DNA of 64,000 bases from an uncultured Enterobacteriaceae bacterium (GTDB lineage: Bacteria; Pseudomonadota; Gammaproteobacteria; Burkholderiales; SG8-39), in assembly GCA_964565875.1 (NCBI GenBank), contig CAZMGP010000001.1, forward strand, positions 123,747-187,746. The letters are read 5' to 3'. Made by a program: the position numbers and the translations under genes. The notes below the pieces were generated by a model. The model made no database searches. It saw only the letters and a list, made by a program, of their open reading frames with translations, and had not been told where the DNA came from. Numbering within the stretch: position 1 is the stretch's first letter; every line of letters begins with the position of its first letter. This document shows positions 5,053 through 35,183 of the stretch, piece after piece.

Positions 5053-6924
5053 ATGACCTTAGGCGAAACAAAGATCGGCTTGAAGCTGATCGTGGCGGTG
5101 GCGGTTGTCACCATCGTCATCATCGGCGCCTTTTCCTACTTCAGCATCCGTGCGCAAAGCGAGGCCTTGCTGTCGCAGGCGGGCATCCACGCCAACAAGC
5201 TGAGCGACGCGATAAAGAACGCGACCCGCAGCGGCATGCTGGAAAACCGCAAGGAAGAGGTTCATTCCATCATCAAGACCGTTTCGCACGAACCGAGCAT
5301 TACGGAAATCAGGATTTTCAACAAAGAAGGGGTCGTCAGCTTTTCCTCCCGCGAAAACTCGATCGGCAAGATGGTGGATAAGCGTGCCGAAAGCTGCTAC
5401 GCCTGCCACACGGAGAACGCGCCGCTGCAAAAGCTTCCCATCGCCGAACGAATGCGCATTTACAAGATCAGCCAGGATTCGCCGCGCATCCTCGCGGTGA
5501 TCAATCCGATCTACAACGAGCCGTCGTGCTCGCAGGCGAGCTGCCACGCGCACACCAAGGACCAGACCGTGCTGGGCGTGCTCGACATCAAAATGGACTT
5601 GAAGGATGTCGATCGCCAGATCGAGGACAGCAAGTTCCGCTTGATCGTTTTTGCGGCGATCGCCATTCTGGCCTTCAGTTTCTTGCTCGCTTATTTCGTC
5701 AGGAAATGGGTCGGCAAACCGGTCACGGAATTGGTGAAGGCGACCAATCAGGTGAGTTCGGGCAATTTGAGCTACACCATCGACAATCCGGGAAAGGACG
5801 AACTCGGCGCGTTGGCAAGGTCGTTCAACAAGATGACCAAGAGCCTGGCAGAAGCCAAGGCGCAGCTGTTTCAAGCCGACAAAATGGCTTCCCTCGGCAG
5901 ACTCGCCGCGGGCGTCGCGCACGAGATCAACAATCCGCTGACGGGCGTCCTGACCCACAGCAGTTTCCTGCTCAAGCGCACCAAGGACAATCCGGAATTG
6001 CAGGAGAGCCTGGAAGTCATCGTTCGCGAGACCATCCGCAGCAGGGAAATCGTCAAGGGACTGCTCGATTTTTCGCGGCAGTCGGTACCGAAGAAGCACA
6101 GCGCCGACATCAACAAGATCATCAAGAATGCGATCGACGTGGTCGCAACGCAGCTACTGCTCAAGCATATTGCGCTCGACGGCCGTTTCGATGCTTCGCT
6201 GCCGGAAATAACAGTCGACGCAAATCAGATTCAGCAGGTATTCATCAACTTGCTGGTGAATGCGGCGGACGCAATCGGGGATAACGGCGGTGAAATAGCG
6301 ATCGTTCCGTCCTTGATTTCGCTGGCGCCGCACGGTTTGGCGCAGATCAAGGCGGCCGTATGCCCGAAGCACCACGACCTGCTGGATAACGACGTGAGGT
6401 GTTACGGATTGCCGACCGTCAAAGTCAAAGTGCTCGCAAACGGGAACGAAGGCGTCGTCAATCTGGACCCAGTCTACGGCAAACACAGACATCAGTACGG
6501 AATCGAAATTGGCAATGCGAAAGATCAGAAGATTCTATGTCCGCAGTGCAATACCTCGTTGATCGAGGAGGGCGTGAAATGTCCGAAATGCGCGTCCTCG
6601 GTGTATGGTTTCGAAGTGCCGCCGCACGGAATCTTCGAAGGCTGCGCGAACCCGGATTGCGATTGGCAACGCTGGCAAGTGCTGGATGAAGCGGGCCACA
6701 AAGATTACATCGAGGTGAGAGTAAAGGATAACGGGCAAGGTATTCCGCCGGAAGATTTGGCGCGAATATTCGAACCGTTCTACACCACCAAAGGGCAATT
6801 CGGAACCGGCCTCGGGCTTGCGATCACATGGGGAATCATAGATAATCATCACGGCACGATTAATGTAGAAAGTGACGCAGGGAAGGGAACTACATTCATC
6901 GTTCATCTGCCGCTGCAAGCGTGA
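5053..6924 (+). CDS. sensor histidine kinase with periplasmic haem-c motif(s), HAMP domain and a Cys-rich insertion in the ATPase domain
   Basis: Two TM helices flank a ~170-aa periplasmic domain containing CYACH (nt 5395-5409) and CSQASCH. HAMP is present (GNLSYTIDNPGKDELGALARSFNKM), as are the H-box (AAGVAHEINNPL), N-box (INLLVNAADAI), and G1/G2 boxes (DNGQGIP, GTGLGLAI). About 130 extra residues sit between the N and G1 boxes. Confidence 0.9.
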   Translation: MTLGETKIGLKLIVAVAVVTIVIIGAFSYFSIRAQSEALLSQAGIHANKLSDAIKNATRSGMLENRKEEVHSIIKTVSHEPSITEIRIFNKEGVVSFSSRENSIGKMVDKRAESCYACHTENAPLQKLPIAERMRIYKISQDSPRILAVINPIYNEPSCSQASCHAHTKDQTVLGVLDIKMDLKDVDRQIEDSKFRLIVFAAIAILAFSFLLAYFVRKWVGKPVTELVKATNQVSSGNLSYTIDNPGKDELGALARSFNKMTKSLAEAKAQLFQADKMASLGRLAAGVAHEINNPLTGVLTHSSFLLKRTKDNPELQESLEVIVRETIRSREIVKGLLDFSRQSVPKKHSADINKIIKNAIDVVATQLLLKHIALDGRFDASLPEITVDANQIQQVFINLLVNAADAIGDNGGEIAIVPSLISLAPHGLAQIKAAVCPKHHDLLDNDVRCYGLPTVKVKVLANGNEGVVNLDPVYGKHRHQYGIEIGNAKDQKILCPQCNTSLIEEGVKCPKCASSVYGFEVPPHGIFEGCANPDCDWQRWQVLDEAGHKDYIEVRVKDNGQGIPPEDLARIFEPFYTTKGQFGTGLGLAITWGIIDNHHGTINVESDAGKGTTFIVHLPLQA

Positions 6925-7385
6925 TCGCGGCCGCGGCAGAAGAGTCAAGAAGTCGCTAGTGCCCGATGCAGCTAACACAGCTGATCCCTCAAAGATCCCA
7001 ATGGGTCGCATGCTTCCGCAGCCTATCGCAATAATCGCGATGGAGTGCGCGACTCGAGATTTCCTGCCGCCCGCGAAAGCAGGATCCGCCAATTCGGCAG
7101 CACCACGTCCCGCAGCGTTCCCTGCCGGAACCGTCGGACGCGGCTCCATCACCTTGCCCGATTTCGTTCGGCGGGTTCATCTCAACTAAATCACCTCGAG
7201 AGACCGACGCGAGCAAAGCGATGCCGCAGCGCGAGCAGGCAAATTTGAAATGGATAAGCGACAGGGAAAGACCGTATTCCCCGGCAAGGGCAAAGGACGG
7301 AGCTGTTAGCGCTTCGATGCGGACGCTAACCTGGCTGTGGACATCGGATTCACGTTTATACGACATGCAATCATAGAGGGCTGAA

Positions 7386-8711
7386 ATGGCGACTTGGCGC
7401 AGAAGACGCAACGCGATCGGAACGAAGTTTTGCATCAACTCAATCTCGGCCGTGGCGCACGCGTTGGCGGCGGCAGTGCTCGCGCTTGCGAGCCTCACCG
7501 CCGTGGCGGCCGCCGGCCAGATATCCCAAGCCGATCAGCAGTGCCTGGGCTGCCACGGGACCAAAGGCATGGAGACGAAAGCGGCCGATGGCGATACTTT
7601 GTCCTTGTATGTGCAAGCCGACCTGTTCGCGAAATCGGTTCACAGCATGATCGGCTGCGCCGTCTGCCACGGCGACGCCACGCTGGCGAACCACCCTCCG
7701 CTCAAGAAGAAGATCGCGAGCGTCCGCGAGCACTCGCTCGAATTGACGAAGGTCTGCTCGTCTTGCCACGGTGCCATTGCCAAACAGTACCAGGGCAGCA
7801 TCCACGCCACGCTATTGCGTAACGGCGTCTCGGTCGCGCCGGTCTGCAGCGATTGCCACAGCCCGCACGCGGTGATGGCGAAAGCCGCCTACGACGCCGC
7901 GAGCGGGGCGCCCTGCAGCAAGTGCCACGATTCCATCTTCGGCGCCTATAAGGGCAGCGTGCACGGCAAGGCCACGCTTGCCTGCTCGAACTGCCATAAG
8001 TCGCATGACGTGAGCCCCGCGGCGGGCGAGGACAAGCTGAAGAACGCCTGCCTCGGTTGCCATCCGGACGCGTTGACGGCGCACCAGACTTGGCTGCCGA
8101 ATTCCGAGCGGCACTTCGACGCGGTGTCCTGTCCCGCGTGCCACGTGCCGGGAGCGAAGCGCAAGGTCGACCTCAGGCTCTACGACAATGTGGCGCAGCG
8201 GCGCGTCGCCGAAAGAGAGGGCGTGCCGCAATTCGAAAGTCGGGTGCGTTCAGCAGACGCGAAGGGCGTCGGACTGGATGCGATGGCACTGCACAGCCTG
8301 CTGCGCGAATTCGGCCGCGACCGCGGCGACAGCAAAATGACCCTGCGCGGCCGGCTGGAAGTCGCGAACGGCGTCGAGGCGCATCAACTTACGCGCAAGG
8401 ACCAGGCGATTCGCGATTGCACCAAATGCCACCAGCAAGGCGCCGATCCGTTTCAGAGCGTGACCGTTTCCATCGTCGGACCCGACGGCCGGCCGGTGCG
8501 CTACGGTGCGCAAAAAGAAGTGCTGAATTCGATCATATCGGTGGATTCGGTGAGCGGGTTCTACGCCATCGGCGGCACCCGGATCAAGCTGCTGGATGCG
8601 CTGCTCGTCCTCGCGCTGATGGGCGGCTTCGGCGTGCCGATCGGCCATGCGACGGTGAGATGGTTGTTCAAGAAATACGCGAAGAAGATCAGCGGAAAAG
8701 AAGACTCCTGA
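7386..8711 (+). CDS. nine-haem c-type cytochrome with C-terminal membrane anchor
   Basis: There is a signal peptide and nine CxxCH motifs (CLGCH, CAVCH, CSSCH, CSDCH, CSKCH, CSNCH, CLGCH, CPACH, CTKCH). A C-terminal TM helix follows (LLDALLVLALMGGFGVPIG). Confidence 0.9.
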   Translation: MATWRRRRNAIGTKFCINSISAVAHALAAAVLALASLTAVAAAGQISQADQQCLGCHGTKGMETKAADGDTLSLYVQADLFAKSVHSMIGCAVCHGDATLANHPPLKKKIASVREHSLELTKVCSSCHGAIAKQYQGSIHATLLRNGVSVAPVCSDCHSPHAVMAKAAYDAASGAPCSKCHDSIFGAYKGSVHGKATLACSNCHKSHDVSPAAGEDKLKNACLGCHPDALTAHQTWLPNSERHFDAVSCPACHVPGAKRKVDLRLYDNVAQRRVAEREGVPQFESRVRSADAKGVGLDAMALHSLLREFGRDRGDSKMTLRGRLEVANGVEAHQLTRKDQAIRDCTKCHQQGADPFQSVTVSIVGPDGRPVRYGAQKEVLNSIISVDSVSGFYAIGGTRIKLLDALLVLALMGGFGVPIGHATVRWLFKKYAKKISGKEDS

Positions 8712-8774
8712 GGTCGAAGACCCGGATCCTCTCGAGTTGCCACGCCGACCGCACACAGTTAAAGGAACTTCGCA

Positions 8775-9410
8775 ATGGAAAGAATCTACGTTCACCCCTT
8801 ACCCGTCAGGATCTGGCACTGGATCAACGCGCTCGGTTTCCTGACCATGATGCTCACCGGCTTTCAGATCCGCTACATCGGGTTGTTCGACCTGATGTCG
8901 TTCCGCACGGCGGTCGTGGTGCATAACTGGGTGGGTTTCGCCCTCATCGCCAATTTCTTCGTCTGGCTACTGTTTTACCTGTTCTCGGACAAGATCCGCG
9001 TCTACCACCCGGAACTGAGCCCGATGAAGCATTTCCAGGCGAGCTTCCGCCAAGCCATGTATTACGGCTACGGCATATTCAAGGGTGATCCCAACCCGCA
9101 CCATGTCAGCGTCTACCGCAAGTTCAACTCGATGCAGAGCATGAGCTATCAAGTCATCATGCTTCTGCTGGTGCCTATCCAGTTCTATACCGGCGTGCTG
9201 CTGTGGGAGGTGAAGGGCTTCTCCGGCATGATCGACCTGCTTGGCGGGGTGCGCGTGGTGGATACGGCGCATGTGCTCATTTTCATATTCTTTGCCGGCT
9301 TCATTCCGATGCACATCTATCTTGCGCTTCTCGGCCACACCCCCATGGCGCACATCAAATCCATGTTGACCGGCTACGAAGAAGTAGAGGAAGAGCACGG
9401 AGTCAATTGA
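8775..9410 (+). CDS. b-type cytochrome membrane subunit (PhsC/FdnI/HydC-like)
   Basis: AAAGGAA lies upstream of the ATG. The N-terminus (YVHPLPVRIWHWINALGFLTMMLTGFQIRY) is typical of this four-helix di-haem b family. Conserved His residues sit in the helices. Confidence 0.8.
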   Translation: MERIYVHPLPVRIWHWINALGFLTMMLTGFQIRYIGLFDLMSFRTAVVVHNWVGFALIANFFVWLLFYLFSDKIRVYHPELSPMKHFQASFRQAMYYGYGIFKGDPNPHHVSVYRKFNSMQSMSYQVIMLLLVPIQFYTGVLLWEVKGFSGMIDLLGGVRVVDTAHVLIFIFFAGFIPMHIYLALLGHTPMAHIKSMLTGYEEVEEEHGVN

Positions 9411-9464
9411 AGGACGCGGCGAGCCCGCAGCGCCCAACTCGAGCCCGGTCTCGCGCCAATGAAA

Positions 9465-9498
9465 ACGGCCGGGGCGGATTATGGTCCGCCCCGGCCGT
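9465..9498 (-). terminator. candidate intrinsic terminator for the minus-strand receiver operon
   Basis: A 14-bp GC-rich stem (ACGGCCGGGGCGGA / TCCGCCCCGGCCGT) has a 6-nt loop. On the minus strand it is followed by TTTTCATT. Confidence 0.55.
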
Positions 9499-9533
9499 CA
9501 GCTTGAGGGTCGTGCGTCGGGTTTACTTGGAAG

Positions 9534-9636
9534 CCCGTAACAAACGGAGGTTTGTTACGGGCCGATTTAGAGGAGCACGAGGGGAGGCGCCCCGCAGGAA
9601 GTGCCCTTGGGGCATATCCCCTCGTCTTGTCACAAA
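9534..9636. repeat. structured ~100-nt repeat, copy 1 (partner at 25626-25726)
   Basis: It is near-identical to 25626-25726. It has two hairpins: CCGTAACAAA/TTTGTTACGG, and ACGAGGGGA...TCCCCTCGT with an inner GCCCC/GGGGC stem. It lies between the stop of the minus-strand gene 9630-10421 and the terminator at 9465-9498. Confidence 0.8.
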
Positions 9637-17123: not shown

Positions 17124-17152
17124 ACCGGGACCTCGTGTCCCGGTTTCTTTTT
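17124..17152 (+). terminator. orphan intrinsic terminator in the aceE upstream region
   Basis: The stem-loop is ACCGGGAC-CTCGT-GTCCCGGT, followed by TTCTTTTT on the plus strand. There is no plus-strand CDS upstream of it. Confidence 0.6.
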
Positions 17153-17325
17153 CCACGCGCAAATCGCGCGGCGGCGTCGGGACTTGGCTCCCTGTATAAT
17201 TGACCAAGCTCGGATTCAGTCATCCGAAGAAGAAGCGGCTTGCGTGCGGGGCGCACGTCCGTGCAATTTTCCCGCCGCGTCCGATCGCTGGCACGCACTG
17301 CCGCTGCAGCACAGAAGGAGTTGCC

Positions 17326-20028
17326 ATGTCAGCCGTGCCCGAACTGCCCGTAAACGACGATATAGATTCCCTCGAAACCGATGAATGGCTGGACGCGCTC
17401 GAAGCCGTACTGGAGCGCGAAGGCCCGGAGCGCGCGCACTATCTGCTCGAGCGCTTGATCGACAAGGCGCGCCGCTCGGGCGCCTACCTGCCGTACAAGG
17501 CGCAGACCGCCTACATCAACACCATACCGCCGCACATGGAGGAGCGCTCTCCAGGCGACGCGGCGCTCGAGGACCGGATACGCGCCTACTGCCGTTGGAA
17601 TGCCATGGTGATGGTGGCGCGTGCGAACAAGGGCGAAGGCGAACTCGGCGGCCACATCGCGAGCTTCGCCTCGGTCGGAACCCTGTTCGGCATCGGCCAG
17701 AACCACTTCTGGCACGCGCCGAGCGCGCAGCACGGCGGCGACCTGGTCTTCTTTCAAGGCCATTCCGCACCCGGCGTGTACGCGCGCATGCTGCTGGAGG
17801 GAAGGCTTTCCGAGGAACAGCTCCTCAACTTCCGCCGCGACGTCGACGGCAAGGGGGTCACCTCCTATCCCCATCCCTGGCTGATGCCCGAGGTGTGGCA
17901 GTTCCCGACGGTGTCGATGGGCCTCGGCCCGATCCAGGCGATCTATCAGGCGCGTTACCTCAAGTATCTGCACGCGCGCGGCCTGGCGAACACCGAGGGG
18001 CGCAAGGTGTGGGCCTTCCTCGGCGACGGCGAGACCGACGAGCCGGAATCGCTCGGCGCCATTTCCATGGCTTCGCGCGAGAAGCTCGACAACCTGGTAT
18101 TCGTGATCAACTGCAATCTGCAGCGCCTGGACGGCCCGGTGCGCGGCAACGGCAAGATCATCCAGGAACTGGAGGGTGATTTCCGCGGCGCCGACTGGAA
18201 CGTGATCAAGCTGATCTGGGGTTCCTACTGGGATCCGCTGCTCGCCTACGACAACGAAGGCATCCTGCAGCGCGTGATGGAGGAGACGGTCGACGGCGAA
18301 TATCAGAATTGCAAGGCCAACGACGGCGCCTACGTCCGGAAGCACTTCTTCGGCAAGCATCCGAAGCTGCTCGAGATGGTGGCGAAGATGAGCGACGAGG
18401 ACATCTGGCGGCTCAATCGCGGCGGCCACGATCCGCACAAGATCTACGCGGCCTACGCCGCGGCGATGAAGCACAAGGGCCAGCCGACCGTCATTCTCGC
18501 CAAGACCGTGAAGGGTTACGGCATGGGCAAGATCGGCGAAGGCAAGATGGCCACCCACCAGCAGAAGAAGATGGATCTGGCCTCGATCCGCCAGTTCCGC
18601 GACCGCTTCAACATTCCCGTCCCCGACGACAAGCTGGAGGAGCTGCCGTTCTACGTCCCGCCCGCGGATTCGCCGGAGATGAAATACCTGCACGCGCGGC
18701 GCAAGGCCTTGGGCGGCTATCTGCCGAGCCGCAGGCGCAAGGCGGATAGCGTGCCGGAGGTGCCGCCGCTAGCCGCTCTCGATGCGGTGCTCAAACCCAC
18801 CGAGCGCGAAATCTCCACCACCATGGCCTTCGTGCGCATCCTCAGCACGCTGCTGCGCGACAAGAATTTGGGCAAGCACATCGTGCCCATCGTTCCGGAC
18901 GAGGCGCGCACCTTCGGCATGGAGGGCATGTTCCGCCAACTCGGCATCTATTCCCTCGAGGGGCAGAAGTACGTCCCCGTCGATCGCGAGCAGGTGACCT
19001 ACTACCGCGAGGACAAGGCGGGGCAGATACTGGAAGAGGGCATCAACGAGGCCGGCGCTTTCTGCTCCTGGATCGCCGCCGCCACCTCGTACAGCTCGAG
19101 CAATGTCGTCAGCATCCCGTTCTACATCTTCTATTCCATGTTCGGCCTGCAGCGCATCGGCGACCTCGCCTGGGCGGCGGGCGACCAGCGCTGCCGCGGC
19201 TTCCTTCTCGGCGGCACCGCCGGGCGCACCACCCTGAACGGCGAAGGCCTGCAGCACGCCGACGGCCATTCGCACGTGCTCGCCTCGGTGATCCCGAACT
19301 GCGTCTCCTACGATCCGACCTTCGGCTATGAGCTTGCGCTGATCATCCACGACGGCCTGCGGCGCATGGTGACGAACCAGGAGGACGTCTACTACTACAT
19401 CACCGTGATGAACGAGAACTACCCCCATCCGGGACTGCCGCAGGGCGCGGAAGCGGGGATACTCAAGGGGATGTATCTGTTCCAAGCCGGGGCGAAGGGG
19501 AAGGCCAAGGCAGGGGCGGCGGAGCGGCCGCGCGTGCAGCTGCTCGGTTCGGGCACCATCCTGCGCGAAGTCATCGCCGCGGCGGAGCTGCTGGAAAAAG
19601 ACTGGGAGGTCGCCGCCGACATCTGGAGCTGCACCAGCTTCACCGAACTGCGCCGCGACGGCCTGGACTGCGACCGCTGGAACCTGCTGCATCCCACCGA
19701 AGCGCCGCGCCTATCCTGGGTGGGACAATGCCTGAAAGACGCGCCGGGACCGGTGATCGCATCGAGCGACTACATCAAGACTTTCGCCGATCAGATCCGG
19801 CCGTTCATCCCTGCGGGGAAGACCTATCGCGTGCTCGGGACCGACGGCTTCGGCCGCTCCGATACCCGTGACAAGCTGCGCCACTTCTTCGAAGTCGACC
19901 GCCGCTGGGTCACGCTGACGGCGCTGAAGGCGCTCGCCGACGAGGGCGCGATCAAGCCGCAAGTGGTGGCGGCTGCGATCAAGAAATACGACATCGATCC
20001 GAGCAAACCCAATCCGGCAAAGGTGTGA
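17326..20028 (+). CDS. aceE: pyruvate dehydrogenase E1 component (homodimeric type)
   Basis: The start is MSAVPELPVNDDIDSLETDEWLDALE, with GAAGGAG upstream. The ~900-aa E1p sequence is followed by E2. Confidence 0.95.
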   Translation: MSAVPELPVNDDIDSLETDEWLDALEAVLEREGPERAHYLLERLIDKARRSGAYLPYKAQTAYINTIPPHMEERSPGDAALEDRIRAYCRWNAMVMVARANKGEGELGGHIASFASVGTLFGIGQNHFWHAPSAQHGGDLVFFQGHSAPGVYARMLLEGRLSEEQLLNFRRDVDGKGVTSYPHPWLMPEVWQFPTVSMGLGPIQAIYQARYLKYLHARGLANTEGRKVWAFLGDGETDEPESLGAISMASREKLDNLVFVINCNLQRLDGPVRGNGKIIQELEGDFRGADWNVIKLIWGSYWDPLLAYDNEGILQRVMEETVDGEYQNCKANDGAYVRKHFFGKHPKLLEMVAKMSDEDIWRLNRGGHDPHKIYAAYAAAMKHKGQPTVILAKTVKGYGMGKIGEGKMATHQQKKMDLASIRQFRDRFNIPVPDDKLEELPFYVPPADSPEMKYLHARRKALGGYLPSRRRKADSVPEVPPLAALDAVLKPTEREISTTMAFVRILSTLLRDKNLGKHIVPIVPDEARTFGMEGMFRQLGIYSLEGQKYVPVDREQVTYYREDKAGQILEEGINEAGAFCSWIAAATSYSSSNVVSIPFYIFYSMFGLQRIGDLAWAAGDQRCRGFLLGGTAGRTTLNGEGLQHADGHSHVLASVIPNCVSYDPTFGYELALIIHDGLRRMVTNQEDVYYYITVMNENYPHPGLPQGAEAGILKGMYLFQAGAKGKAKAGAAERPRVQLLGSGTILREVIAAAELLEKDWEVAADIWSCTSFTELRRDGLDCDRWNLLHPTEAPRLSWVGQCLKDAPGPVIASSDYIKTFADQIRPFIPAGKTYRVLGTDGFGRSDTRDKLRHFFEVDRRWVTLTALKALADEGAIKPQVVAAAIKKYDIDPSKPNPAKV

Positions 20029-20040
20029 GAGGGGAGAACC

Positions 20041-21372
20041 ATGGCGAGCAGCATCACCGAAATCAAGATTCCCGACATCGGCGACTTCAAGGAAGTCGAT
20101 GTGATCGAAGTGCTGGTCAAGCCCGGCGACCGCGTGGCGAAGGAATCCTCGCTCATCACCGTCGAGTCGGACAAGGCGACGATGGAAATTCCCTCGCCCG
20201 CCGCGGGGGTGGTGAAAGAGCTGATGGTCAAGCTGGGCGACAAGGTGAGCGAAGGCAGCGCGATCCTGCTGCTCGAGGCGAGCAATGACGAGGTGCAGAC
20301 GGCACCTGTGCAAACCCGTAGCGCGCCTGCGGTAGCAGTGCAAGCCGCGCCGACGGCGGCGGCGAGCGTGGTCGCACCGCTGCCGACGCGCAAACTCGCC
20401 CCGGTCGCACCAGAAGCCGAGGCGCAGCTGTTCCGGCCGCACGCGAGTCCCTCGGTGCGCAAGTTCGCGCGCGAGCTCGGCGTCGAGCTCGCGCGGGTGC
20501 AGGGGACCGGCGCCAAGGGGCGCATCACCCAGGAAGACGTGCAGGCCTTCGTCAAGGGCGTGATGACCGCAACGCCGGAAGCCACCGCCGCGGCGGCCAG
20601 TGCACGCGGCGGCATACCCTTCAACTTGCCCGAGTGGCCGCAAGTGGACTTCGCAAAGTTTGGCCCGGTCGAAACCAAGCCGCTGTCGAAAATACGCAAG
20701 CTCTCGGGCGCCAATTTGCACCGGAACTGGATCTCCATTCCGCACGTCACCCAGTTCGACGAGGCCGACATCACTGAGCTCGAGGGTTTCCGCAAAGAGG
20801 CGGGGGCGGCGAGCGAGAAGCAGGGCTTCAAGCTCACGCTGCTCGCCTTCCTGATCAAGGCGAGCGTCACCGCGCTGCGCCAGTTTCCGGAATTCAACGC
20901 TTCGCTCGAGCGCGGCGGCGAAAACCTGGTACTGAAGAAATACTTCCACATCGGCGTCGCAGTCGATACGCCGGACGGCTTGGTCGTGCCGGTGATCCGC
21001 GACGCCGAGCGCAAAGGCGTCTACGAGCTCGCGCGCGAATTGGCCGATGTATCGGCCGCGGCGCGGGAGAGAAAGCTCAAGCCGAGCGACATGCAGGGCG
21101 GCACGTTCAGCATTTCCAGCCTGGGCGGCATAGGCGGCACGGCGTTCACGCCGATCATCAACGCGCCGGAAGTTGCGATCCTCGGCGTGTCGCGCTCGGC
21201 GCAGCGCCCCGTCTGGGTCGCTGGCAAAGACGGCGCAGGCGCGTTCGAGCCGCGGCTGATGCTGCCGCTTGCGCTCTCCTACGATCACCGCGTGATCGAC
21301 GGCGCCGCCGGCGCGCGCTTCCTGAGCTATCTGGCGTCGGTGCTGTCCGACATCCGCCGCTCGCTGCTCTAG
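20041..21372 (+). CDS. aceF: dihydrolipoamide acetyltransferase E2 (single lipoyl domain)
   Basis: The lipoyl motif is [11 protein letters not shown]. The subunit-binding domain is ASPSVRKFARELGVEL. The catalytic tail is LSYDHRVIDGA. Confidence 0.95.
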   Translation: MASSITEIKIPDIGDFKEVDVIEVLVKPGDRVAKESSLITVESDKATMEIPSPAAGVVKELMVKLGDKVSEGSAILLLEASNDEVQTAPVQTRSAPAVAVQAAPTAAASVVAPLPTRKLAPVAPEAEAQLFRPHASPSVRKFARELGVELARVQGTGAKGRITQEDVQAFVKGVMTATPEATAAAASARGGIPFNLPEWPQVDFAKFGPVETKPLSKIRKLSGANLHRNWISIPHVTQFDEADITELEGFRKEAGAASEKQGFKLTLLAFLIKASVTALRQFPEFNASLERGGENLVLKKYFHIGVAVDTPDGLVVPVIRDAERKGVYELARELADVSAAARERKLKPSDMQGGTFSISSLGGIGGTAFTPIINAPEVAILGVSRSAQRPVWVAGKDGAGAFEPRLMLPLALSYDHRVIDGAAGARFLSYLASVLSDIRRSLL

Positions 21373-21461
21373 CTTCCTGGCAGCGTGAGGCAGTTGGTCC
21401 AGATATTGAACCATTTCCGCTCAGGCGAGCGCCCAGCGCCTGTGAGTCCGATTCGGCTTTC

Positions 21462-22040
21462 ATGACCACCATCGTCATCGCCAAGAAAGACGGCCAGGTC
21501 GCCATCGGCGCGGACACACTGACGACTTTCGGCGATACGCGCCTTGCCGATCCGTACAAGCGCGCGCACGATAAGATTCTGCATTTCCACGGCTCCTGGA
21601 TCGCGGTCTGCGGCAGCTCCGCGCATCACCTGGTGCTGGAGAACATCTTCGGCGAAATGAAGACGCTGAAGCTGGGCAGCCGCTCCGAGATATTCGAGAC
21701 CTTCCGCGGCATCCACCCCATCCTCAAGGAAAGATGCTTCCTCAACCCGAAAGAGGAAGACGACGATCCCTACGAATCCTCGCAGATCACGGCGCTGATT
21801 GCCAACCATACGGGCATCTACGGCGTCTATTCCTATCGCGAGGTATTCGACTACGATCGTTTCTGGGCGGCCGGCTCGGGACGCAATTTCGCCCTGGGCG
21901 CGATGTTCGCAAGCTACACGCGGGCAAAGAGCGCAGCCGATGTGGCGCGCATCGGGATCGCGGCGGGCACTGAATTCGACAAGAGCTCGGGCGGGCCCTG
22001 CGAAGTGCACACCATAAAATTGAAGCGAGGGGTCAGATGA
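21462..22040 (+). CDS. HslV/proteasome-beta-like Ntn-hydrolase-fold protein embedded in the pdh operon
   Basis: The N-terminus is MTTIVIAKKDGQVAIGADTLTTFGDT (compare HslV TTIVSVRRNG..GDGQ.T.G.T). A GSG motif follows later (AAGSGRNFALGAM). Its stop overlaps the lpdA start (ATGA). Confidence 0.75.
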   Translation: MTTIVIAKKDGQVAIGADTLTTFGDTRLADPYKRAHDKILHFHGSWIAVCGSSAHHLVLENIFGEMKTLKLGSRSEIFETFRGIHPILKERCFLNPKEEDDDPYESSQITALIANHTGIYGVYSYREVFDYDRFWAAGSGRNFALGAMFASYTRAKSAADVARIGIAAGTEFDKSSGGPCEVHTIKLKRGVR

Positions 22041-23797
22041 CCGACGCAGTCGAGATCAAAGTACCGGACATCGGGGATTTCAAGGACGTCGACGTCATCG
22101 AGGTCCTGGTCAAGCCGGGTGACAGGGTGGAGAAGGAAAGCTCCCTCATCACGGTGGAGTCGGACAAGGCGACGATGGAAATCCCCGCGCCGGAAGCCGG
22201 CGTGGTGAAGAAGGTGATGCTCAAGGTCGGCGACAAGGTTTCCCAGGGCACGCCCGTCCTCTTGCTCGAGCCGACGGCGGACGCGGAGCAGCAGGCGGCC
22301 GTCGCCGCGGCCCCGGCAAAGGCGGAACAGGTCGAGCCGGGCGCCGGAGTGGGCGCGCAAGCGAGCAGAACCTCAGCGGCTACCGGCGCGGACCTGCACG
22401 CGGAAGCCGTGGTCCTCGGCGCGGGACCGGGCGGCTACACCGCCGCGTTTCGCGCCGCCGACCTGGGCAAGAAAGTCGTCCTCACCGAGCGTTATCCGGC
22501 GCTCGGCGGCGTGTGCCTCAACGTCGGCTGCATACCGTCCAAGGCATTGCTGCATGCGGCGAAAGTGCTGACCGACGCCGAGGAAATGGCGCACGCCGGC
22601 ATCGCCTTCGGCAGACCGAAGATCGACGTGGAGAAGCTGCGCGCCTGGAAGGAAGGCGTCGTCGGGCGCTTGACCAAGGGTTTGGCCGCGCTCGCCAAGC
22701 AGCGCAAGGTGACGGTGATCCAAGGCGCGGCGCAGTTCGAATCGCCGCACGCCATCGCGGTCGAGACCGAGGCGGGACCGAAGCGGGTGTCCTTCGATCA
22801 TTGCATCGTCGCGGTCGGCTCGAGCGTGGCGCGCCTGCCCGGCTTTCCATATGAGGATCCACGCCTGATGGATTCCACCGGCGCGCTCGCGCTCGCCGAC
22901 ATTCCGCGGCGGCTGCTGGTGATCGGCGGCGGCATCATCGGCCTGGAGATGGCCTGCGTCTACGATGCTCTCGGCTCCAAGGTGACGGTGGTGGAACTGG
23001 CCGACGGCCTCATCCCCGGGGCAGACCGCGACCTCATCCGGCCGCTCGCCAAGCGCCTGGAGAAGCGCTACGAGGCGATCTACTTGAACGCCAAGGTGAC
23101 TAAGCTCGAGGCAAAAGAAGAAGGCTTGCTCGCGAGTTTCGCCGGCGAGGTGAAGCCGGCGCAGCAGATGTTCAATCGCGTGCTGCTGGCGGTCGGGCGA
23201 AGACCCAACGGCGCGGCAATCGGCGCCGAGCGCGCCGGCGTCGCAGTGGACGAGCGCGGCTTCATCGCCGTCGACAAGCAGCAGCGCACGAACGTGCCGC
23301 ACATCTTTGCCATCGGCGACGTCTGCGGCGAACCGATGCTCGCGCACAAGGCGACGCACGAAGCGAAGGTGGCGGCAGAGGTCATCGCCGGGCACAAGGC
23401 GGCGTTCGACGCGCTCACCATCCCCTCGGTCGCCTACACCGATCCGGAAGTCGCTTGGATGGGCTTGACCGAAACCGAGGCGAAGCAGCGCGGCATCGAT
23501 TACGACAAAGCGAGCTTCCCCTGGGCGGCGAGCGGCCGGGCGCTCTCCATCGGCCGCGACGAAGGCTTGACCAAGTTGCTGTATGACAAGGCGAGCAAGC
23601 GTCTCCTCGGCGCCGGCATCGTCGGGCCCAACGCGGGCGAGTTGATCGCCGAGTTGGTGCTCGCCTTGGAAATGGGCGCCGACATGGAAGACATCGGTCT
23701 CAGCATTCACCCCCACCCGACGCTGTCGGAGACGCCCTATTTCGCCGCCGAGATGGCTCTGGGCAGCATCACCGATCTCTACCTTCCCAAGAAATGA
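22037..23797 (+). CDS. lpdA: dihydrolipoamide dehydrogenase E3 with N-terminal lipoyl domain
   Basis: The N-terminal ~80 aa are a lipoyl domain ([11 protein letters not shown]). The FAD motif GAGPGGY follows, then the redox disulfide [10 protein letters not shown] and the HPTLSE tail. Confidence 0.95.
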
Positions 23798-23822: not shown

Positions 23823-24485
23823 ATGACCCAAGATGAGCTGAAACAGCAAGTCGCCCGCGAGGCGATCAAGTATGTCGTCGAGGACGCGATCGTCGGCGTC
23901 GGCACCGGCTCAACGGCCGACCACTTTATCGACGAACTGGCGAAAATCAAGCACCGGATAGACGGTGCGGTAGCGAGTTCGCAGAAGTCGGCGGACCGGC
24001 TGAAGGCGCACGGCATCCGCGTGGTCGACCTGAATTCGGTCGCCGAGCTGCCGGTCTATGTCGACGGCGCCGACGAAGTGACCGAACATCTGGGGATGAT
24101 CAAGGGCGGCGGCGGCGCGCTCACCCGTGAGAAGATCGTCGGCGCCGTCGCGCAAAGCTTCGTCTGTATCGCCGACGAGTCGAAACTGGTGGGCGTTCTG
24201 GGCAAATTTCCACTGCCAGTGGAAGTGATCCCCATGGCGCGCTCTTACGTCGCGCGAGAGTTGGTGAAGCTCGGCGGCCAGCCCGAATTGCGGCAGGGAT
24301 TCACTACCGACAACGGCAACGTCATACTCGACGTCTTCGGCCTGAAGATCCTCAATCCGGTCGAGCTGGAAGAGGAACTGAATAACATCACTGGCGTGGT
24401 CACCAACGGCTTGTTCGCACGGCGCGGGGCGGACGTCCTGCTGCTCGGAACGCCGGCCGGAGTAAGAACGATGAAGAGGAAATAG
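23823..24485 (+). CDS. rpiA: ribose-5-phosphate isomerase A
   Basis: The motifs [14 protein letters not shown] and [13 protein letters not shown] are present. The 220-aa length fits. Confidence 0.93.
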
Positions 24486-24560: not shown

Positions 24561-25247
24561 ATGCCTGAACACATATCGAAACAATTCGACGCGGAGCTGG
24601 AGGCGGTGCGCTCGCGCGTGCTGCAGATGGGCGGACTGGTCGAAGAGCAGATCGTCAAGGCGATCGACGCGCTCGCGAGCGGCGACGTGGCGGTGCTCGA
24701 TGGCGTGATCGAGGATGATCGTCGCGTCAACGCCATGGAAGTCGGCCTGGACGAGAGCTGCAGCCACATCATCGCGCGGCGTCAGCCCGCGGCGAGCGAC
24801 TTGCGCCTGGTGATGGCGATCGTGAAGACCATCACCGATCTGGAGCGCATCGGCGACGAGGCGGAAAAGATCGCGCGCATGGCGAAGCTGATCCACGGCG
24901 CGGAGCGCTTGCACTTGCCCCGCCTTGAACTCAAGCACGTAGCGAACCTTGCGCTCGCCATGCTGCGTCAGGCGCTAGACGCGTTCGCCCGTCTCGACGC
25001 AAATGCGGCGCTGGGCGTGGTGAAGCAGGACCGCAGCGTCGACGACGAGTTCCGCTCCATCCTGCGCCAACTCATCACCTTCATGATGGAAGACCCGCGC
25101 ACCATCACCCGCTGCCTGGAAATCCTGTTCGTGGCGAAGGCGATCGAGCGCATCGGCGATCACGCCAAGAACATGGCCGAATACGTGGTCTACATGGTCG
25201 AAGGCCGCGACGTGCGCCACACCATGGACCAGGCGCAAGCGCAGTAA
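24561..25247 (+). CDS. phoU: phosphate signalling complex protein PhoU
   Basis: The two-repeat PhoU sequence is present (HISKQFDAELE..., DLERIGDEAEKIA, IERIGDHAKNMAEYV). Confidence 0.9.
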   Translation: MPEHISKQFDAELEAVRSRVLQMGGLVEEQIVKAIDALASGDVAVLDGVIEDDRRVNAMEVGLDESCSHIIARRQPAASDLRLVMAIVKTITDLERIGDEAEKIARMAKLIHGAERLHLPRLELKHVANLALAMLRQALDAFARLDANAALGVVKQDRSVDDEFRSILRQLITFMMEDPRTITRCLEILFVAKAIERIGDHAKNMAEYVVYMVEGRDVRHTMDQAQAQ

Positions 25248-32963: not shown

Positions 32964-33125
32964 GGGAACGTCTCCAGGGAATGTGGCTGAGCGGGGATGG
33001 ATGCCACCATACCACAGTCGTCGTCGCGCTACCGAGCGCGGCGTTCTTGTCGGCGCAGGCGTATGCCGCTAGACTGTAGTTTTATACAGGAATGGCTGTT
33101 CGGTCACGACCGGCAGGCCAAGGCG

Positions 33126-35183
33126 ATGACACCCGCGTATCTGGAAAGCCTCAACCCGGCGCAACGCGCCGCCGTCACTTGCGGCATCGGCAGCGCCGCT
33201 GTCGCAGCGCCGCTGCTGGTGATTGCCGGCGCCGGATCGGGCAAGACCAAGACGCTCGCCACGCGTGTGGCGCACTTGATCCTGAACGGCGTCGATCCGC
33301 GCCGCATCCTACTCCTCACCTTTGCGCGACGCATGGCGAGCGAAATGCTCCGCCGCGTCGACCAAATCTGCGCCGAGGCACTCAAAGGCAAGAGCACTCA
33401 TGCCGCGCATGCGGTGCAATGGTCGGGCACGTTTCACGCCGTGGGTGCGCGGCTGCTGCGCCTGTACGCCGAGAGCATAGGACTCGACCCGGCCTTCTCC
33501 ATCCTCGATCGCGCCGATGCCGCCGACCTGCTCGATCTGGTGCGCGACGAGCTGCGTTTGTCGGAAGCAAAAGGGCGCTTCCCGAAGAAGGCGACTTGCC
33601 TCGCCATCTATTCCAGCGTGGTCAACGGCCAGCTCTCGCTGCACGATGCGTTGGCGCGCTTCTTCCCCTGGTGCGGCGAATGGGAAGACGACTTGAAGCG
33701 CTTGTTCGCCGCCTATGTCGAGGCGAAGCAGGCGCAATCCGTGCTCGACTTCGACGACCTGCTGCTCTACTGGTCGCAGATGATGGGTGTGGACGAAATC
33801 GCGCGCCAGGTGTCGGCGCGCTTCGATCACGTGCTGGTGGACGAATACCAGGACACCAACGCGCTGCAAGCGGCGATCCTGCTCGGGCTGAAGCCGGACG
33901 GCAGAGGCTTGACGGTAGTCGGCGACGATGCGCAGTCGATCTATTCCTTCCGCGCGGCGCGGGTGGAGAACATCCTGGAATTTCCCGCGCTGTTCAAGCC
34001 GGCGGCGGAACGCGTCACCCTGGAGCAGAACTACCGCTCGAGCCAAGCCATCCTCGCGGCGTGCAACAGGGTGATCGGCCACGCGAGCGCGCGCTTCGCC
34101 AAGAATCTTTATTCCGAGCGTAGCGGCGGCAAGCCGCTGATCGCGATGGTCGCCGACGAAACCGAACAGGTCGATTTCGTGGTGGCGCGCGTGCTCGCGA
34201 ACCGCGAGGCCGGCATGGACCTGCGCGAACAGGCCGTGCTGTTTCGCGCCTCGCAGCACTCGGCGCCGCTGGAACTCGAGCTCTTGCGGCGCGGCATTCC
34301 TTTCGTCAAGTACGGCGGACTGAAGTTCCTCGAAGCGGCGCATGTGAAGGACATGCTTGCCTTGCTGCGCTGGATCGAGAACCCGCGCGACCGCACGGCG
34401 GGCTTGCGCGTGCTCAAGCTCATCCCAGGAATCGGGCCGGCGATCGCGCGTCGCGCATTGGACGGCATCGAGCGCGAGGGGCGTGGGCTCGCGGCGCTCG
34501 CGCGCTTCCGCCCACCTGCCGCCGCCGCGGAAGTGTTTGCGGCCCTGCTCGCGGCGCTGCAGGAGGCCGCGGCCGCCGCACCCTGGCAGGCCCAGATCGA
34601 ACGGCTGCGGCACTGGTACGACGCGCTGCTCGCGCAGAACTACGACAGCGCGCCTACGCGCCTGGGCGACCTCGACCAGCTCGAGCGCATGGCGGCGCAG
34701 CACGCCTCGCGCTCCTCCTTCCTCACCGATCTGACCCTCGATCCGCCTGAAGCGTCAGGGGCCGAGGCCGGCCCGCCGCTGAAAGACGAAGACTGGCTCG
34801 TGCTGTCGACCATCCATTCGGCGAAGGGCCAGGAATGGCGCGCAGTCATGGTGCTCAACGTGGTCGATGGCTGCATCCCGTCCGACATGGCGACCGATAC
34901 GCCGGAAGAGATCGAGGAGGAACGGCGGCTACTCTATGTCGCGATGACGCGCGCACGCGACGATCTGGTGCTGATGCAGCCGCTGCGCTTCTATGTGCAC
35001 GGGCAGGGCTACGGCGGCGATCGCAGCGTGTATGCGCCGCGCAGCCGCTTCGTCGCCGATGCGGATCTCGATGCGTTCGAACTCGTCGGCGTAGCGCCGC
35101 GCGAGCGGCGCTCGAATCAGGCGCCCGCTCCGCTTGCGGCGAGCGTCGACCTCAAACTCGGCATGCGCGAGATGTGGCGCTAG
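33126..35183 (+). CDS. UvrD/Rep-family ATP-dependent DNA helicase
   Basis: The sequence has LNPAQRAAV, Walker A AGAGSGKT, VDEYQDTN, and the later helicase motifs (QNYRS, TIHSAKGQEW, YVAMTRAR). ATG 33126 was chosen over the longer track ORF. Confidence 0.9.
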   Translation: MTPAYLESLNPAQRAAVTCGIGSAAVAAPLLVIAGAGSGKTKTLATRVAHLILNGVDPRRILLLTFARRMASEMLRRVDQICAEALKGKSTHAAHAVQWSGTFHAVGARLLRLYAESIGLDPAFSILDRADAADLLDLVRDELRLSEAKGRFPKKATCLAIYSSVVNGQLSLHDALARFFPWCGEWEDDLKRLFAAYVEAKQAQSVLDFDDLLLYWSQMMGVDEIARQVSARFDHVLVDEYQDTNALQAAILLGLKPDGRGLTVVGDDAQSIYSFRAARVENILEFPALFKPAAERVTLEQNYRSSQAILAACNRVIGHASARFAKNLYSERSGGKPLIAMVADETEQVDFVVARVLANREAGMDLREQAVLFRASQHSAPLELELLRRGIPFVKYGGLKFLEAAHVKDMLALLRWIENPRDRTAGLRVLKLIPGIGPAIARRALDGIEREGRGLAALARFRPPAAAAEVFAALLAALQEAAAAAPWQAQIERLRHWYDALLAQNYDSAPTRLGDLDQLERMAAQHASRSSFLTDLTLDPPEASGAEAGPPLKDEDWLVLSTIHSAKGQEWRAVMVLNVVDGCIPSDMATDTPEEIEEERRLLYVAMTRARDDLVLMQPLRFYVHGQGYGGDRSVYAPRSRFVADADLDAFELVGVAPRERRSNQAPAPLAASVDLKLGMREMWR

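Follow-up and report, generated by a model that had tools for sequence, protein, structure and literature searches.

The analyzed DNA (the window) is a 64,000-nucleotide stretch of contig CAZMGP010000001.1, derived from an uncultured betaproteobacterial lineage. It contains a pyruvate dehydrogenase (pdh) operon, within which a gene of the betaproteobacteria proteasome homologue (BPH) family is placed between aceF and lpdA (Table 1). The operon encodes the E1 (aceE), E2 (aceF) and E3 (lpdA) components of the pyruvate dehydrogenase (PDH) complex. The aceE open reading frame (ORF) opens at position 17200, and its likely start, judged from the ORF translation (MSAVPELPVN...), is the ATG at 17326. 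AceF is composed of one lipoyl domain, an E3-binding domain and a catalytic domain (Pfam), and LpdA carries an N-terminal lipoyl domain.

In agreement with a first-pass annotation of this DNA, the BPH gene encodes a protein of 192 amino acids (aa) with the N-terminus MTTIVIAKKDG; no in-frame start codon is present further 5'. The GC content at the third codon positions (GC3; 0.80) is similar to that of the adjoining genes, and the GC content of the window is 64%. The ORF is a real gene and not a chance ORF, because its product matches a protein of solved structure (phmmer, E=2e-59) and has homologs in the protein database (3,566 homologous clusters). With its exact sequence, only two short Logan contigs and one NCBI record were matched in an exact-sequence lookup. 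The long ORF of the opposite strand that extends over BPH is the usual shadow found in high-GC DNA.

Table 1. Coordinates of the genes, junctions, codons and other features of the window.
Feature	Position	Strand	Basis and remarks
Terminator-like hairpin	17124..17144	+	8-bp stem with 6 GC pairs, then TTCTTTTTCC
aceE (pyruvate dehydrogenase E1)	17326..20028	+	PDH_E1_M 4.7e-109 and transketolase domains; upstream of aceF in related loci; likely start
aceF (dihydrolipoamide acetyltransferase, E2)	20041..21372	+	2-oxoacid_dh 1.1e-81, Biotin_lipoyl 7.7e-22, E3_binding 1.4e-16
Long ORF over BPH	21369..22010	-	high-GC shadow
aceF-BPH spacer	21373..21461	+	89 nt, no recognizable signal; conservation, fold and promoter/terminator checks
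BPH gene (betaproteobacteria proteasome homologue)	21462..22040	+	192 aa, without propeptide; phmmer to 5OVU/5OVS, AlphaFold2, Foldseek
Thr2 codon (mature Thr1)	21465..21467	+	predicted N-terminal nucleophile; invariant (81/81)
Asp18 codon (mature Asp17)	21513..21515	+	D in 77, E in 4 of 81
Lys38 codon (mature Lys37)	21573..21575	+	equivalent to proteasome Lys33; invariant (81/81)
Cys50 codon	21609..21611		directly before the oxyanion-hole Gly (motif CGSSAHH)
Gly51 codon (mature Gly50)	21612..21614	+	invariant (81/81)
Acidic pore loop KEEDDDPYESS, residues 97-107	21750..21782	+	highly conserved; holds the low-confidence stretch 101-107
GSG motif, residues 138-140	21873..21881	+	G138 and G140 invariant (81/81); position 139 S in 80, T in 1
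ATGA overlap of BPH and lpdA	22037..22040	+	BPH stop TGA 22038-22040, lpdA ATG 22037-22039; read from sequence
lpdA (dihydrolipoamide dehydrogenase, E3)	22037..23797	+	586 aa; Pyr_redox_2 4.8e-63, Pyr_redox_dim 2.7e-34
Lipoyl domain region of lpdA	22037..22270		first ~78 codons; Biotin_lipoyl 7.8e-22, residues 6-75
rpiA (ribose-5-phosphate isomerase A)	23823..24485	+	Rib_5-P_isom_A 2.1e-59; 25 nt past lpdA
phoU	24561..25247		next after rpiA
ORF of 119 aa	28428..28787	+	no Pfam match at E<=1e-5
ORF of 449 aa	30490..31839	+	no Pfam match at E<=1e-5
UvrD-type SF1 helicase gene	32997..35183		sole P-loop match near BPH

The two junctions of the BPH gene are asymmetric. The BPH stop codon overlaps the lpdA start codon, as the first-pass annotation had noted, and the Shine-Dalgarno sequence of lpdA (GAGGGG) sits within the 3' end of BPH. 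In contrast, aceF and BPH are separated by 89 nt, and no obvious Shine-Dalgarno sequence precedes the BPH ATG. Of the translational coupling within the pdh operon that had been proposed earlier, the BPH/lpdA side is thus retained, whereas the gap separates BPH from aceF. A regulatory element within the spacer was considered and rejected: the spacer is not conserved among the closest relatives, its predicted RNA fold is no better than that of shuffled sequence (z = +1.48), no promoter- or terminator-like site was found on its + strand, and Rfam gave zero matches anywhere in the window.

The first-pass annotation had regarded the product as a proteasome/HslV-like Ntn (N-terminal nucleophile) hydrolase, possibly of the BPH family, and this assignment was borne out by sequence and structure searches. 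In a phmmer search of PDB, residues 2-188 matched the BPH of Cupriavidus metallidurans (Cm-BPH; 5OVU) with 204 bits (E=2e-59, 53% identity) and the protein matched that of Thiobacillus denitrificans (Td-BPH; 5OVS/5OVT) with 131 bits (E=3.4e-37, 39% identity), compared with only ~15 bits for the HslV and 20S proteasome chains. An AlphaFold2 monomer model, built from 23 homologs, had a predicted local distance difference test score (pLDDT) of 82 and a predicted template modeling score (pTM) of 0.82. The top Foldseek matches of this model in PDB were Cm-BPH (TM 0.84-0.87) and Td-BPH (TM 0.82-0.86), followed at lower values by HslV and 20S beta subunits. The gene is therefore a BPH ortholog with a proteasome-beta-like Ntn hydrolase fold.

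Profile models by themselves were rejected as a means of classification. The Pfam Proteasome model PF00227, to which BPH has been assigned (PMC8665760), scored 21.9 bits over the C-terminal half alone. Because this lies below the gathering threshold (22.4 bits), a check with Pfam only would wrongly refute the assignment; many close BPH homologs carry a precomputed PF00227 match. No NCBIfam model reached its cut-off: the HslV equivalogs TIGR03692 and NF003964 gave 18.4 and 19.0 bits (cut-offs 157.75 and 137), and the archaeal beta equivalog gave 21.8 bits (cut-off 224). The protein thus cannot be classified by Pfam or NCBIfam, and its classification is therefore based on the PDB sequence and fold searches.

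Two other identities were refuted, and we give them practically no credence. For the HslV peptidase of the ATP-dependent HslVU protease, the equivalog scores (18-19 bits) stand against cut-offs of 137-158, and the ~15 bits of PDB HslV against the 204 bits of Cm-BPH; moreover, no hslU gene is adjacent, and HslV does not have the long acidic loop at its pore. The window BPH has a weak N-terminal similarity to HslV models. An MFS transporter is contradicted by the lack of any MFS Pfam match at E<=1, by the length of 192 aa and by the soluble alpha/beta sandwich fold of an Ntn hydrolase; the longest run of hydrophobic or small residues (AVLIFMWGC) is 8. Both names have been given to homologs of this protein: 'HslVU peptidase subunit' (many, JGI) and 'MFS transporter' (NCBI; P0063, P0099, P0106 and P0116). 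Such misannotation is likely to spread, because no NCBIfam model reaches its cut-off for the window BPH.

The BPH family, its structure, the absence of an unfoldase, its place in the pdh operon and the puzzle that this poses are already known (2008, 2018). The name was given by Valas and Bourne (2008; PMC3235984), who noted the conservation of Thr1, Lys33 and Gly47, and three operon contexts, i.e., argG, pdh and hsp33, were described by Fuchs et al. (2018; PMC5777263). The pdh-operon BPH was found in Ralstonia and Polaromonas (PMC3235984), and Cupriavidus completes the list of genera in these sources (PMC3235984, PMC5777263). The statement of the first-pass annotation that an ORF of unknown function is a known feature at this position agrees with these papers, and the locus tags of R. 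eutropha H16, in which one gene lies between pdhB (A1375) and pdhL (A1377), fit it (PMC3734047). BPH is thought to be descended from HslV (PMC3235984, PMC8665760). A search of the literature published after 2018 for the function of BPH returned only a 2021 survey of proteasome homologs, which adds no function (PMC8665760).

A nucleophile Thr located right after the initiator Met (Ser outside Betaproteobacteria) and the lack of a propeptide are expected of a BPH, and the N-terminus of the window BPH (MTTIV) conforms to this. The HslV-type landmarks listed in the first-pass annotation (GD..T.G.T and GSG) are present, the former as GADTLTTFGDT at residues 16-26. Residue conservation, counted over an alignment of 81 BPH sequences, is given in Table 1. 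Every active-site residue listed by Fuchs et al. (PMC5777263) maps onto the window BPH in the alignment with Cm-BPH and Td-BPH; Ser-139 of Td-BPH is hydrogen-bonded to Thr1 (PMC5777263). The acidic pore loop of the window BPH (KEEDDDPYESS) aligns with KEDEDDPYESS of Cm-BPH. It is predicted to be flexible and contains the only run of at least three residues with pLDDT <50, and the loop is likewise unresolved in the apo structure of Td-BPH (PMC5777263). An elongated acidic pore loop is a feature separating BPH from HslV (PMC5777263, PMC8665760).

Compared with the known systems, the window BPH is closest to Cm-BPH, with which it shares identity over the full length (53%), the fold, the catalytic residues, the acidic run of the pore loop, the lack of a propeptide and the pdh context. 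The two differ in the residue preceding the oxyanion-hole Gly (Ala in Cm-BPH, Cys in the window BPH), and the window BPH comes from an uncultured lineage. Td-BPH has the same fold, and its Thr1, Asp17, Lys37, Gly50 and Ser139 map one to one, but its pore loop is more divergent (EDKEDDLESS) and its gene has an arginine biosynthesis (argG) context instead of pdh (PMC5777263). HslV (ClpQ) is similar in the proteasome-beta fold of Ntn hydrolases (TM ~0.6-0.7), in the N-terminal Thr, in the absence of a propeptide and, judging by the BPH orthologs, in forming a homo-oligomer of two rings. It shares only ~20% identity with the window BPH, which has no adjoining HslU, and its pore loop is short and basic, while that of BPH is long and acidic. 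The HslV rings are hexameric and those of BPH heptameric, and the HslU-contact residues are not conserved in BPH (PMC5777263). Beta subunits of the 20S proteasome have the same fold and a catalytic mechanism of the same Thr1/Lys33/Gly47 type; heptameric rings and the morpholino adduct with epoxomicin are shared with the BPH orthologs (PMC5777263). Unlike the 20S system, BPH lacks alpha rings, a propeptide and the S12 strand (PMC8665760).

Genomic context was assigned by tblastn, with the E1, E2, E3 and RpiA proteins of the window as queries, in the best 80 of at least 589 species genomes encoding a BPH relative (one genome per species; 56-89% identity). The closest species genome is a metagenome-assembled genome (MAG) from Lac Pavin (89%), and, of the named relatives, Rhodocyclaceae, Sulfuritalea, Denitratisoma and Burkholderiales-type MAGs are the closest. 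The order aceF-BPH-lpdA was found in 64 of the 80 loci (60 with both neighbors, and four with one neighbor and a contig end on the other side), a figure that applies to relatives down to 56% identity, not to the BPH family as a whole. A survey of this position had been suggested in the first-pass annotation. In the remaining 16 loci neither aceF nor lpdA lies beside BPH. The aceF stop and the BPH start overlap by 4 nt in 38 loci, with gaps of 2-116 nt in the remaining pdh-linked loci, and the BPH stop overlaps the lpdA start in 49 loci (4 nt in 35, 8 nt in 14). Within the pdh-linked group, alignments to LpdA nearly always start at query residues 1-6 (L038 and L040 are possible exceptions), and a lipoyl-bearing E3 therefore accompanies the BPH-containing pdh operons of the sample.

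For 29 loci in which all four genes are full-length, the median identity to the window proteins is 66% for BPH, 67% for E1, 57% for E2 and 55% for E3. The conservation of BPH thus equals that of E1 and exceeds that of E2 and E3 in each of these 29 loci, from which it follows that BPH is under strong purifying selection, as a selected, functional cistron.

Among the 16 loci without adjacent pdh genes, hsp33 and/or the S4-domain gene hsp15 are located directly 3' of BPH in at least nine, often with gluQ on the 5' side; three loci (L064, L070 and L073) could not be resolved. The arrangement gluQ-BPH-hsp33-hsp15(S4) was seen in L066, L068, L076, L077, L080 and L082 (around 5900-9600). The gluQ gene encodes a glutamyl-Q tRNA(Asp) synthetase, and the accessible parts of the two earlier papers do not mention it as a neighbor of BPH (PMC3235984, PMC5777263). 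Further arrangements include gluQ alone upstream of BPH, followed by a contig end (L074), and gluQ, a class-II GATase, BPH and an alpha/beta hydrolase (L058 and L069), with an O-methyltransferase just 5' of BPH in L058. In a neighbor-joining tree of the BPHs, constructed without bootstrap support so that statements on clades are tentative, all 16 non-pdh BPHs except that of L063 form one clade, to which the pdh-linked majority is paraphyletic. This topology tentatively suggests that the pdh position has been long retained and that BPHs linked to hsp33 constitute a single derived clade.

Taken together, we consider it highly probable that the window gene is a BPH ortholog encoding a ring-forming N-terminal-threonine peptidase independent of HslU, expressed as an internal cistron of the pdh operon. 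The identity of the gene, its fold, its catalytic residues, its operon position and conservation, and the absence of a nearby unfoldase are direct observations. With regard to the last of these, the first-pass annotation had reported no AAA+ unfoldase nearby, and none was found by Pfam among the 20 genes within ~±12 kb of BPH, where a UvrD-type SF1 helicase gives the only P-loop match. The possibility that the window conceals a partner protease or unfoldase was also rejected: besides the lack of AAA+ unfoldases among the 20 neighbors, tblastn with E. coli HslV as the query revealed no second HslV-like sequence in the window.

According to the proposed mechanism, BPH would be an HslV descendant freed from its dependence on the HslU unfoldase. 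By analogy with the orthologs (39-53% identity), the initiator Met is most likely lost, which would expose a reactive Thr1, and two heptameric rings of the protein most likely stack to form a barrel. In Cm-BPH and Td-BPH the Met is removed, epoxomicin and MG132 are covalently bound to Thr1, and the structures are tetradecameric double rings with an acidic cavity and no partner ATPase (PMC5777263). The Thr1/Asp17/Lys37 sites of the window BPH would face an unusually acidic chamber, to which the long pore loop may control entry. The enzyme would be ATP-independent and narrowly specific, its targets being peptides or protein tails that are small, unfolded or positively charged, and not folded proteins. 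As an internal cistron of aceE-aceF-BPH-lpdA(-rpiA), it would be made whenever PDH is made, because the lpdA start overlaps the BPH stop, although its level is probably below those of E2 and E3, because no obvious Shine-Dalgarno sequence precedes it. The substrate class, and any link to PDH quality control or to oxidative or heat stress, are inferred only.

A number of observations weigh against this interpretation. Purified Cm-BPH and Td-BPH were inactive on standard peptide substrates and casein, did not change the patterns of carbonylated proteins and did not complement a lon/hslVU/clpPX-deficient strain of E. coli; neither HslU nor PDH subunits were pulled down, the latter not even by tagged Cm-BPH with a crosslinker (PMC5777263). 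As far as the genomic context is concerned, 16 of the 80 loci lack adjacent pdh genes (at least nine of them with hsp33 and/or hsp15 directly downstream), argG constitutes a third context of BPH (PMC5777263), and in L063 (BPH at 1304-1882 of CAJAWW010000288.1) the gene falls within the pdh-linked clade, yet has no aceF or lpdA beside it. In L063, BPH is flanked by a 399-aa ORF upstream and a 605-aa ORF downstream, past which come rpiA and phoU, which are also the downstream genes of the window. This may reflect loss or replacement of the pdh genes with retention of BPH, or else a misassembled MAG. Because the purified orthologs are inert, peptidase activity of the window BPH is suggested by its active-site chemistry only. 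The inactivity of two orthologs on all substrates tried in vitro (PMC5777263) would also be explained if BPH were a catalytically silent ring protein, serving as a scaffold, a chaperone-like cage or a binding protein. We regard this as quite improbable: T2, K38 and G51 are invariant in all 81 sequences and S139 is present in 80, positions at which a pseudoenzyme would be expected to drift, and the reaction of ortholog Thr1 with mechanism-based inhibitors of the proteasome is exactly that seen in the 20S proteasome (PMC5777263).

Valas and Bourne proposed that BPH might degrade the PDH complex (PMC3235984). On this view, BPH would serve PDH specifically, as a regulator or as a protease for quality control, which degrades damaged or surplus E1, E2 or E3, or clips their lipoyl domains or linkers, its synthesis being translationally coupled to that of its targets. 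Such a role would suit the placement of BPH behind aceF and ahead of lpdA, which is seen in 64 of the 80 genomes and in most of these with overlaps of 4 or 8 nt on both sides, and the persistence of this gene order over BPH identities that range from 89% down to 53% (Cm-BPH, known from the literature), as well as the proneness of PDH complex subunits to carbonylation (PMC5777263). It is nevertheless unlikely, given that Cm-BPH captured no subunit of the complex even after crosslinking and left carbonylated proteins unaffected (PMC5777263), that BPH is also found away from pdh genes, beside hsp33/hsp15 or argG, that L063 keeps BPH without pdh genes and that BPH of the window, with its 89-nt spacer, is not tightly coupled to aceF.

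The negative pulldowns (PMC5777263), together with the location of BPH beside hsp33/hsp15 (nine of the 16 non-pdh loci) or argG, are better accommodated if a general stress or peptide-processing BPH merely rides on the strong constitutive expression of the pdh operon, the overlaps being a result of genome compaction. Close behind lpdA, the window and 20 of 51 loci also carry rpiA, which is unrelated to PDH. Such a passenger role has, in our estimation, a chance approaching even. It does not readily account for the very stable gene order across a large clade, in which BPH always occupies the same internal junction and never the end of the operon, or for the paraphyly of the pdh-linked majority, which suggests long retention (in the neighbor-joining tree without bootstrap support).

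A side observation concerns Cys50 of the window BPH, which directly precedes the oxyanion-hole Gly. A Cys occupies this position in 72 of the 80 relatives, in pdh- and hsp33-linked loci alike, while Ala and Thr are found in Cm-BPH and Td-BPH, respectively, i.e., the two crystallized BPHs that are inactive in vitro. The redox-linked neighbors E3 and Hsp33 prompted the idea that Cys50 is a redox-sensitive site, which is speculative and of low probability. In its extended form, it would make BPH of a large, mostly uncultured clade of Rhodocyclales/Burkholderiales type a PDH-dedicated peptidase, tied to E2 and E3 by the overlaps and redox-gated through the clade-specific Cys. Such a peptidase could trim lipoyl domains or linkers that are damaged, or remove them, from E2 or from the E3 with its lipoyl domain. 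We consider this a long shot; if true, it might explain the inertness of the Ala- and Thr-bearing proteins in vitro, and BPH would be the first protease with a defined substrate built into a bacterial 2-oxoacid dehydrogenase operon.

For the HslU-independent peptidase considered most probable here, the significance of the locus lies in the combination of a perfectly conserved proteasome-type active site, conservation at the level of E1 and occurrence in at least 589 species genomes. Experiments may be guided by three results: the order aceF-BPH-lpdA in the majority of the sampled relatives, overlapping junctions as the rule, and a second major context, gluQ-BPH-hsp33-hsp15.

Regarding the remaining parts of these loci, no more than 300 nt separate lpdA from rpiA in 20 of the 51 related loci with sufficient flanking sequence, on account of which the pdh operon of this lineage may include rpiA as a co-transcribed gene. 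In one locus (L022, 7815-12749; a MAG labeled as Roseateles), an inverted second set of aceE, aceF and the 5' part of lpdA is located just past BPH on the opposite strand, which is probably an assembly artifact or a recent inverted duplication. Upstream of the operon in the window, a PAS histidine kinase and LuxR-type response regulator pair (Pfam) is divergent from aceE. The terminator-like hairpin is part of the 5' leader of aceE, on the stretch that separates aceE from the divergent histidine kinase gene, and matches no Rfam family; nine terminator-like sites were detected in the region, versus 6.5 expected by chance, and the hairpin may mean nothing. The Pfam scan of the BPH neighborhood also distinguished genes encoding (i) an M3 oligopeptidase, (ii) PhoU, (iii) an Fe(2+)-trafficking protein, (iv) a pirin, (v) an enoyl-CoA hydratase-like protein, (vi) a hemerythrin and DUF2249 pair, (vii) an alcohol dehydrogenase, (viii) the UvrD helicase and (ix) FeoB. 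Of the two ORFs without a Pfam match (Table 1), the one of 449 aa adjoins the pair of hemerythrin and DUF2249/TusA-like genes.

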